Below, in pieces: positions 21,001 to 24,000 of a DNA stretch of 56,224 nucleotides. Source of the stretch: Stx2-converting phage Stx2a_WGPS9; the sequence record AP012535. One strand, given 5' to 3'. The position numbers are program-made. Position 1 is the first letter of the stretch, and each line of letters begins with the position of its first letter.

Positions 21001-24000
21001 GGAGAGTGCGCTGTCATGCTGGGGTATCGACAGGTAAGCAGAATATTTTGCTGAAAAATGACGTTGGCCAACGCGGGCAGATAACACGAAATCCTGCGAA
21101 CTGGCAAAATGTAAGTGAATAAAGTCAACAAGATTGTTTCATGAAGAGGCACCGTAATGGTGCCTTTGTCATTTCTGCGCTTCGCACAAGCGTAAATAAA
21201 CCAAAGAACCTTTCAGGATGAGCCCTGGTGGATAACCGGCAGTGGTCTGGTTAACCCTCTTTGGGCTGGTTATTCCTGTGCGCAGGGTTCATCACTAAAA
21301 GGAAATAACCGATGAATATGATGACCGTGCCGTTTCACGGCGATTCTCTTTATGTGGTTAACCATAACGGCGAACCATACGTTCCCATGAAACCTGTCGT
21401 TGCGGGGATGGGGCTGGCCTGGCAATCACAGTTGGCTAAGTTAAGACAGCGTTTTGCGTCAACTATAACGGAAATCGTTATGGTTGCTGAGGATGGGAAA
21501 CGACGCAATATGGTGTCCCTGCCGCTTCGAAAACTTGCAGGCTGGTTACAAACCATCAATCCCAACAAAGTAAAACCCGAAATCCGCGGCAAGGTAATCC
21601 AGTATCAGGAAGAGTGTGACGATGTTCTCTATGAATACTGGACGAAGGGTTTTGTCGTTAATCCCCGTCGAATGAGTGTGATGGAAGAACTCAATCAGGC
21701 TTGCGCTGACATGAAACGGGATAAAAACATTGCCAGTGTGTTTGCTACCGGGCTGAATGAGTGGAAACAGGTTAAATCCGCGCATGTATCAAAAATCCGC
21801 ACATTGATAAACGAAGCGAATCTGCTGATTGATTTTGTCCTGGCTGATACAGGCAAAGGGAAAATAACAAAGGCGGATTGATGGAGTGGTGGCTAATGAT
21901 ATCGGATAAACTCATAACGCTGGCGAAGATCCTCTGTGTAATCGTCGGCATTTCATTTTTAGTCATGCTGGTTGCCATTTTCTTTTCCACCGCCTGGCGA
22001 GTCCTGACGTTATCGGGACTGGTGGGGTGAAAGAGAGATGAACCGTGTTCTGTGTGTGGTGATTATTGTCCTGCTGGTAGCCTGTGGTGCGCTTAGTCTG
22101 GGGCTGAATCATTACCGCGATAACGCCATAACCTACAAAGAGCAGCGCGATAAAAAAGTCAGTGAGCTGGAGCTGGCAAATGCAACCATTACTGATATGC
22201 AGCAGCGCCAGCGTGATGTTGCTGCACTTGATGCCAGATACTCGAGGGAATTAGCCGATGCGAGAGCTGAAAATGAAACTCTTCGCGCTGACGTTGCCGC
22301 TGGTTACCGCAGCCTGCGGATCAACGCCACCTGTCCAGGTCCCGTGCGTGAAGCCACCGGCACCGCCCGCGTGGATAATGCAACCGGCCCCCGACTGGCA
22401 GACACCGCTGAACGGGATTATTTCACCCTCAGAGAGAGGCTGATCACTATGCAAAAACAACTGGAAGGAACCCAGAAGTATATTAATGAGCAGTGCAGAT
22501 AGAGTTGCCCATATCGATGGGCAACTCATGCAATTATTGTGAGCAATACACCCGCGCTTCCAGCGGAGTATAAATGCCTAAAGTAATAAAACCGAGCAAT
22601 CCATTTACGAATGTTTGCTGGGTTTCTGTTTTAACAACATTTTCTGTGCCGCCACAAATTTTGGCTGCATCGACAGTTTTCTTCTGCCCAATTCCAGAAA
22701 CGAAGAAATGATGGGTGATGGTTTCCTTTGGTGCTACTGCTGTCTGTTTGTTTTGAACAGTAAACGTCTGTTGAGCACATCCTGTAATAAGCAGGGCCAG
22801 CGCAGTAGCGAGTAGCATTTTTTTCATGGTGTTATTCCCGATGCTTTTTGAAGTTCGCAGAATCGTATGTGTAGAAAATTAAACAAACCCTAAACAATGA
22901 GTTGAAATTTCATATTGTTAATATTTATTAATGTATGTCAGGTGCGATGAATCGTCATTGTATTCCCGGATTAACTATGTCCACAGCCCTGACGGGGAAC
23001 TTCTCTGCGGGAGTGTGCGGGGATAATCAAAAACGATGCACACCGGGTTTTCTCATTTTTCACGAGATGGGAGCGATTTCCCGCGAAGCCGCCTGTCCGG
23101 TGCGGTGGTGGAAGAAACCGGATAAAACAACCGCATTGTGCAAATATCGATCAAATATGGTGCTGCTGTGTGAAATCTGAAAAATCACAGCGGTCATTAT
23201 GCATCAGTTTTTAACACAGGACGTCAGAACGTGACATGGCAAAGCTGGACTGGAAAAAGCTGGAGCAGGCATTCCGACGCGAACATGCCGAAACGGGAAT
23301 AACATTACTGGACTGGTGCCGGAAGAAAAAGATTAATTACAACACCGCCAGAACCCGTATAAAAATGGGCAAAATCGATCATGAAATTGATCATAAAACC
23401 GATCATGAAATCGATCATGACATCTCAGATGAAGAACCCTGCAATGACGCGGGTTCCGGCGATGAAAAATGTGCAAAAAACTCTGAAAAAAACTGCGCAA
23501 ATTCGGCAGAAACGAAACGGATTCGTGGTTCCCGACTTTTACCACCTTCAAACGCTTTTTCTCAGCGAAACACCCACGCCGTAAGACACCGTGGATATGC
23601 GAAGTATCTTGAGGCAGATAACCTCATGGATGATGCGTCCGACATGGTGCTGTTCGATGAACTGGTGTTCACCCGGGCCCGCGCACTTTCAGTAACTAAG
23701 GCACTTAAAGGGATGTTCGCCGACCTGGAAGAGGCAACTGACGTGGAAACCCGTGTTGCTCTTTACGACAAAATACTCAAAGCTGAACAGGCCCTTGACC
23801 GGAATATTGCCCGTATCGAGTCAATTGAACGCTCATTGCTGACGCTGGACGTCCTGGCTGAGACAGCACCAAAACTTCGTGCTGACCGGGAAAGAATCAA
23901 CGCCGCCAGAGATAAACTCAGAGCGGAAACCGATATTCTGACCAGCCAGCGTCGGGGCGTTGTTACGCCTGTCAGTGACATCGTGTCATCGCTGCATGAA

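Follow-up and report, generated by a model that had tools for sequence, protein, structure and literature searches.

Why does a Shiga toxin 2 (Stx2)-converting phage keep four evenly spaced Dam methylation sites inside the gene for its small terminase subunit? The question is raised by phage Stx2a_WGPS9, whose 56,224-nt sequence (record AP012535, one strand, 5' to 3'; hereafter 'the window') carries, within the terS gene, GATC sites at 23377, 23389, 23401 and 23413, that is, at a spacing of exactly 12 bp over the span 23377–23416. An earlier note on this DNA had reported these four sites in 23370–23425, and their positions were confirmed both by a site search and by Tandem Repeats Finder, which returned a single array at 23372–23424 (period 12, 4.4 copies, 82% matches, consensus AAATCGATCATG). 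The hexamers are CGATCA at 23376, 23400 and 23412 and TGATCA at 23388. The array is in frame within the open reading frame 23236–24042 (terS nt 137–189), and its product, IDHEIDHKTDHEIDHD, makes up residues 47–62 of the protein. The window as a whole is poor in GATC, with 140 sites as compared to 225 ± 14 expected from dinucleotide-preserving shuffles, a count at or below that of every one of 100 such shuffles. When 140 GATC sites are placed at random, four or more fall within 40 bp in 1.7% of trials, and GATCAT is the sole 6-mer in the 56 kb that has four copies at exact 12-bp spacing. The array is a tandem duplication, and its regularity is therefore no coincidence among sites of independent origin; what calls for explanation is its retention, not whether chance could have produced it.

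Comparison with related genes points to an answer: the array is probably a row of sites for the N-terminal helix-turn-helix (HTH) domain of TerS itself, and would form the recognition part of the packaging site, pac, of a headful phage. The window is a 933W-type Stx2 phage. Its terS matches that of Stx phage vB_EcoS_ST2-8624 and E. coli 86-24 at 100% identity, and those of 933W (L0112) and VT2-Sakai at 99.8%; while no Pfam family was found to cover the protein in a Pfam search, its match to PHROG 370, with terL and a portal gene downstream, upholds the earlier assignment of the gene as that of the small terminase. Identity to L0112, taken together with the reported lifestyle of 933W, places the phage among those with headful (pac) packaging of the 933W type: 933W is reported to be a generalized transducer whose virion DNA is probably terminally redundant (PMC3752737), and TerL phylogenies label the group 'headful (933W type)' (PMC7317114). 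In the literature searched we found no mapped pac site or virion ends for 933W or Stx phages, nor any footprints or mutants for 933W. Two apparent clues to virion ends were rejected: the start and end positions of database records (in several records the break 787 nt into terS merely reflects a start at the terL ATG, a matter of reorientation) and a note in PV189400, which concerns the join at the terL ATG reorientation.

Our comparison set comprised about 80 related terS genes, with loci gathered from Citrobacter, Salmonella, Serratia, Yersinia, Brenneria, Pectobacterium, Aeromonas, Xenorhabdus and viral contigs. Immediately downstream of the DNA for the HTH, relatives – both homologous and module-sharing terS genes – carry 3–9 copies of one short motif, which in most of them is TGCGCA (3–7 copies); in other E. 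coli alleles the GATCAT units are replaced by repeats such as AAAGTGCGCAGA and AAAATGCGCAAA. Across 36 sources the density of TGCGCA is 20.9 per kb in terS nt 120–330 as compared to 0.42 per kb elsewhere, an about 50-fold enrichment. The extended consensus is AAA(C/G)TGCGCAA(A/T), with commonest spacings of 9, 10, 12 and 14 bp. We also set the commonest non-low-complexity 6-mer of each linker (terS nt 110–330) against 220-nt background windows of the same locus: in 62 of the 72 non-redundant genes the top linker 6-mer beats every background window. In the Stx2a_WGPS9 linker GATCAT is present four times, as compared to a background maximum of 2–3 copies, and taking at least three copies and a count above background as the definition, the gene encodes its own array.

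On this comparison the conserved object is a nucleotide motif, not a peptide. The motif is read in three frames and is held by codon choice while the amino acids vary, and selection therefore acts on the DNA. In the linkers of the same 36 sources, frame use of TGCGCA is 111/30/17, and the motif is read as xxT GCG CAx (Ser/Thr/Asn-Ala-Gln), as TGC GCA (Cys-Ala) or as GTG/ATG/CTG CGC AAx (Val/Met/Leu-Arg-Lys/Asn). Where the linker has an Ala-Gln/His dipeptide, Ala is encoded by GCG in 114 of 124 cases, as compared to 23% for the C-terminal half of these TerS proteins, and the codon before the dipeptide ends in T in 113 of 124, across 12 amino acids.

The candidate reader of the motif is encoded immediately upstream. 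In an AlphaFold2 model of TerS the N-terminus folds into three helices (residues 6–20, 24–31 and 35–41; predicted local distance difference test, pLDDT, 73–87), the third being the predicted recognition helix; residues 45–109, with the repeat inside, are disordered (pLDDT about 31), and long C-terminal helices come after. The N-terminus matches other TerS families (PHROG 51, E = 1e-9) and PacA of phage P1. A Foldseek search of the model against PDB returned coiled-coil noise only, with none at E ≤ 0.001 (HK97 TerS, at E about 1.5–1.8, is not significant), and a profile search of PDB sequences with TerS gave no match.

Across the family, helix 3 and the repeated hexamer vary in step. ARR(Y/H)(I/L)K is paired with TGCGCA in many genera, AKRYIT with TTCGCA (in two frames) in Pectobacterium and Brenneria, AKRYIK with TGCGAA in Pasteurella phage Pmp11 and Yersinia phage vB_YenM_210.17, and ART(R/Q)IK with YGATCA in 933W and three Salmonella prophages. 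The pairing extends to phages that share the N-terminal module and have an unrelated TerS body: Klebsiella phage 5 LV-2017 (ARRYIK) has six TGCGCA copies in three frames, Vibrio phage douglas 12A4 (ARRYIK) has five, which is every copy in the locus, Pmp11 has nine TGCGAA copies in two frames and vB_YenM_210.17 has four. In two alleles into which an unrelated N-terminal domain has been swapped, TGCGCA is lost, with TGCGTA and TGCACA as remnants, and the linkers have repeats of their own: GGTACGAAA three times plus inverted CGTACC in one, and TCCGTC two to three times plus GACGGA twice, inverted, in the other. Such repeats may represent the pac motifs of other specificity types. The swapped-domain repeats are located at nt 1620–1720 of locus L045 and nt 1620–1700 of locus L046.

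The GATCA-type alleles bear directly on a competing explanation, according to which the repeat matters for the protein only: slippage would have made a low-complexity, Asp/His-rich IDHx linker, perhaps metal-binding or serving as a spacer, and GATC would be an accident of GAT-CAT codons. The predicted disorder of the region is in keeping with this, as are the variation of copy number in frame, from 3 to 7, and the fact that GATCA-type units all lie in one frame. However, relatives keep their hexamer across three frames and through synonymous choice while the peptides vary, and the motif type follows the HTH helix and not the remaining protein. The three Salmonella alleles, with 3, 5 and 3 units of AAAAGTGATCAAAA / AAAAACGATCAY and with both TGATCA and CGATCA present, share with 933W the start of the array at gene nt 141 and the 12-bp period; Y-GATCA is constant between the two, whereas the peptides differ (SDQK/SDHK/NDH(I/E/N) in Salmonella, ID/TD-H-E/K/D in 933W, and so SDQK or NDHI against IDHE). 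We consider it unlikely that the repeat serves the protein alone.

A broader proposal, which we offer only tentatively, is that the first ~300 bp of terS constitute a portable 'specificity cassette': an HTH domain together with its own site array, such that one recombination would move both reader and pac site, with a code linking helix 3 to hexamer and, in 933W and Salmonella, a shift to a Dam-methylatable hexamer that would make these phages the second case of methylation-gated packaging besides P1. If the code holds, pac specificity would be predictable and re-engineerable; if the methylation-gated cassette does, the second example besides P1 would lie in phages that spread Shiga toxin. A simple one-to-one helix–hexamer code was toned down, as P1 PacA and a Pseudoalteromonas homologue are exceptions to it.

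The array has a companion. Past a 45-bp spacer lies a second 12-bp-periodic, A-tract-rich array, with TGTGCA at 23470 and TGCGCA at 23494; most 933W-type alleles have TGCGCA at both places, and by this comparison the second array keeps the ancestral TGCGCA-type motif. Within it TGCGCAAATTYGGCAGAAACGAAACG is unchanged across otherwise divergent E. coli alleles, and A-tracts at the locus are phased at about 11–13 bp. If the site is P1-like, the spacer is a candidate for the region of the first cut. Changes in the length of 933W-type GATC arrays are always multiples of 12 bp and yield 3, 4, 5 or 7 units. In complete E. coli genomes the four-unit form is matched at ≥99% by 347 records; another 17 lie between 90 and 95% identity, and the examples shown from this band are 109-nt, three-unit matches; among phage records the corresponding numbers are 157 and 29. 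A five-unit allele (L080) and a seven-unit allele (P0001) are also present, and on these sequences the copy number is flexible, from three to seven.

A separate observation concerns terS alleles that are interrupted at the array. In the phage records examined, an insertion sequence (IS) element of the IS3 family splits terS right after a three-unit GATCAT array (L041, LC727844.1, nt 1201–2100), with the insertion, TGAACCGCCCCGGG..., beginning 6 nt past the last GATCAT unit. Of 218 phage records that match the array region, 30 cover <80% of it, which is consistent with the same IS3-family interruption. Prophages with an IS-split terS should be unable to package.

How might TerS use such a site? 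Where TerS rings have been studied, neighbouring HTH domains are separated by about one DNA turn, and wrapping is favoured by A/T runs among GC steps (PMC4737164). TerS of the window would likewise assemble into a ring with this separation, and several of its HTH domains would dock on the 12-bp units in succession, as well as on the TGYGCA units downstream. The A-tract-rich DNA would bend around the ring, helped by the phased A-tracts, and TerL would be placed for a first cut nearby, with headful packaging running towards terL. In the lineages of 933W and Salmonella a TGCGCA core would have given way to YGATCA as helix 3 changed from RY to TR/TQ. Every unit now holds a Dam site and, as a possibility only, methylation or SeqA could modulate binding or cutting, as in P1.

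The earlier note had likened the array to the pac site of P1, with its methylation-controlled packaging, and the likeness is borne out in its comparative part – hexamer type, place in the gene, a related N-terminal domain and co-variation – while the part that concerns methylation is plausible only. In the P1 record the pac cleavage sites are annotated about 275–285 nt into pacA, beside a site for integration host factor (IHF). TGATCA/G hexamers are found at pacA nt 194–233 (four, at spacings of 7, 12 and 15 bp) and nt 324–352 (three, at 12 and 11 bp), and are translated M-I, I-D-H, N-D-Q and G-D-H, then N-D-R, D-D-H and V-I-T; the hexamers of the window lie at terS nt 141–186 and 235–264. In both phages, then, the site, known in P1 and proposed here, is within the gene of the recognition subunit, just past an N-terminal HTH-like domain; it has multiple hexamers of the YGATCA form, each with a Dam site and mostly read as Asp-His or Asp-Gln; spacings include 11–12 bp; and packaging is headful, with generalized transduction. 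The N-terminal domains are related, weakly but reciprocally: the ~45 N-terminal residues of PacA match the TerS family of the window (BLASTP E = 0.009; hhalign probability 75%, E = 2.4e-5), 933W TerS matches the PacA family PHROG 1711 at 3e-5, and PacA matches PHROG 370 at 1.9e-4. The analogy with P1 is more than a resemblance because the hexamer type and the gene place are the same and the reader domain is related. The two systems also differ. P1 pac has two GATC clusters (4 + 3) of irregular spacing, which flank an IHF site and the mapped cuts; past the ~45 N-terminal residues PacA (397 aa) is unrelated to the 268-aa TerS of the window; the 933W-type TerL and P22-like portal belong to a morphogenetic module other than that of P1; and methylation dependence is demonstrated in P1 alone.

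Several points weigh against the array being the TerS-binding part of pac. The function suggested for the 933W array comes from comparison alone. As compared to P1, the window has a single, strictly periodic GATC cluster followed by a TGYGCA cluster instead of two GATC clusters, and terS nt 1–400 lack an IHF consensus at ≤1 mismatch. PacA of P1 has ARRYL and yet TGATCA, and the Pseudoalteromonas homologue has ARRYIK without TGCGCA. GATCA-type units are all read in a single frame and come from two related lineages, which makes the argument for DNA over protein weaker than in the case of TGCGCA. Identity among tandem units can reflect recent duplication, and with three to seven units in nature the exact copy number is, as far as the alleles tell, not critical. 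Finally, the DNA-binding domain of SF6 TerS binds pac with little specificity (PMC4737164), and HTH rings need not read repeats.

The presence of a Dam site in every unit invites a stronger explanation, namely that packaging is gated by methylation: the Dam state of the array (un-, hemi- or fully methylated, possibly via SeqA) would decide terminase binding or cutting and, as in P1, tie packaging to the timing of replication; late in infection the phage Dam would see to it that methylation is complete. We regard this as doubtful. Each unit does have its GATC within a hexamer of the P1 type, and cleavage at P1 pac is under the control of hexamer adenine methylation, according to PMC10028697, which cites Sternberg and Coulby. 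The array persists despite a GATC-depleted genome, and GATCA arose from or replaced TGCGCA, which is not Dam-methylatable. The phage also has the Dam-like N6-adenine methyltransferase that had been noted earlier, a nin-region gene confirmed by its Pfam match (PF05869, E = 1e-64). The product is identical at 174 of 175 residues to the VT2-Sakai nin-region methyltransferase NP_050531, which we infer to be M.EcoVT2Dam, an enzyme whose reported target is GATC (PMC6602927), and the phage Dam is very probably GATC-specific.

However, most of the family works with motifs that lack GATC, so methylation is not required, and for the same reason methylation control is not a family property. The Dam gene itself is a common gene of lambdoid nin regions, found at 95–100% identity in 242 phage records; phages whose packaging is unrelated, namely HK97 and mEp043 (both cos phages) and lambda-like ones, are among them. 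Of the 'Stx2a-converting' records only 51 match the Dam gene, as compared to 113 that match terS. In Salmonella prophage L043, which has five GATCA units, the genes listed over the 10 kb that precede terS, from replication to lysis, include none of the Dam family; for a TGCGCA-type E. coli prophage no Dam is annotated in 20 kb upstream. The central change from CG to AT could be neutral specificity drift. Moreover, E. coli and Salmonella methylate GATC themselves, and host Dam would methylate the array anyway. A dedicated partnership between the Dam gene and GATC-type terS found no support, the gene being spread over lambdoid phages with other packaging systems. Of the proposed coupling of packaging to methylation there remains a plausible mechanism with a phage enzyme that is compatible with it and is not specifically tied to the array.

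The earlier suggestion that the array controls terS expression was rejected: a scan of 22.5–24.5 kb found no promoter-like or terminator-like site at the array and no Rfam match. The same result bears on the explanation that the array is a Dam/SeqA cluster or an RNA element apart from packaging, acting in post-replication sequestration, in methylation-dependent transcription of terL or in mRNA control of terS/terL translation. In the hemimethylated state, four GATC sites at this 12-bp spacing could be bound by SeqA, and the A-rich repeats would also be present in the mRNA. Like the GATC clusters bound by SeqA (oriC, the dnaA promoter) and the Dam switches (pap, agn43), the array has close GATC sites whose methylation state could be read by a protein. 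Those clusters, however, belong to origins or promoters, where their partners are DnaA, Lrp or OxyR, whereas the array of the window is in a coding region without a promoter signal, and its positional homologues in relatives have no GATC. The co-variation with a DNA-binding helix encoded immediately upstream speaks against a role apart from packaging as well, and we hold such a role to be very improbable.

The proposed row of TerS sites can be compared with further packaging systems. The R-sites of lambda cosB are several short sites for the HTH of gpNu1 beside the cutting site, with DNA bending involved, much as suggested for the array; lambda differs in being a cos system with defined cohesive ends, in having the sites outside the terminase coding sequence and in needing IHF. 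The pac site of P22 lies inside the small-terminase gene (gene 3) of a headful phage, and the window has a P22-like portal; P22 pac, however, consists of one asymmetric site, about 22 bp long, with no repeat array, and gp3 is unrelated to TerS of the window. In SPP1 and SF6, pac (boxA/B/C) has direct repeats at or within the start of terS, and G1P forms a ring with peripheral HTH domains (PMC4737164). In contrast to the window family, where the hexamer shows strict conservation and follows the recognition helix, the DNA-binding domain of SF6 is little sequence-specific and the repeats are poorly conserved (PMC4737164). No sequence relationship between SPP1/SF6 G1P and TerS of the window was detected in the PDB sequence profile and Foldseek searches.

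While pac sites within terS genes and the hexamer array of P1 are already known, we found in the searchable literature no description of the array of the window, of TGCGCA arrays in terminase genes or of the pairing of helix and motif. Phages of the 933W type carry Shiga toxin genes and transduce host DNA, and the array offers a concrete 150-bp pac candidate, enabling direct tests of where packaging starts, prediction of pseudo-pac sites for generalized transduction in enterohaemorrhagic E. coli and the design of packageable and non-packageable constructs. The helix–hexamer pairing across the family provides naturally occurring data on how DNA is read by small terminases, which the SPP1/SF6 and P22 studies left open. 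If Dam were to gate binding or cutting, the P1 paradigm would be extended and a link made to the lysogeny of 933W, which reportedly depends on host Dam.

Table 1. Coordinates of the terS locus, its repeat arrays and associated genes in the window
Feature	Coordinates	Strand	Basis
Nin-region Dam-family N6-adenine methyltransferase	11277..11804	+	PF05869, E = 1e-64
terS, small terminase, 268 aa, 933W L0112 type	23236..24042	+	PHROG 370, E = 4e-125
N-terminal three-helix HTH domain coding region (aa 1–45)	23236..23370	+	AlphaFold2 model
Predicted recognition helix, aa 35–41 (NTARTRI)	23338–23358	+	AlphaFold2 model
GATC array of four 12-bp units with YGATCAT cores	23372..23424		Tandem Repeats Finder
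Spacer between the two arrays, 45 bp, encodes ISDEEPCNDAGSGDE	23425..23469		sequence
Second array, 12-bp-periodic, A-tract-rich: TGTGCAAAAAAC, TCTGAAAAAAAC, TGCGCAAATTCG, GCAGAAACGAAA	23470..23511		sequence
terL, large terminase	24023..25729	+	PHROG 2 and others; annotation of identical phages
P22-like portal protein	25729..27873	+	PF16510, E = 1e-128

The terS and terL genes overlap by 20 nt (24023–24042), and an equal overlap is annotated in divergent alleles (L001–L003, L039); that it is shared suggests translational coupling. A 368-bp contig of Xanthomonas pisi DSM 18956 (L027) encodes the last 79 residues of a window-type TerS at 100% identity and is probably E. coli or Stx-phage DNA contaminating the assembly. 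Lastly, the slot occupied by stx holds other cargo in related prophages. In two Salmonella prophages with GATCA-type terS (L043 nt 4508–7194 and L044 nt 1363–5608) the genes between antiterminator and lysis genes are, in one, MgtC and a weak match to a pertussis-toxin-S1-like ADP-ribosyltransferase and, in the other, a pyocin-S/colicin-D-type bacteriocin with immunity genes. The E. coli G1/2 prophage L042 has a TGCGCA-type terS and no Dam-family gene annotated in its nin region; its stx-equivalent slot, which the Q antiterminator and the lysis genes flank, holds a type I restriction-modification HsdM/HsdS pair at nt 11563–14678.

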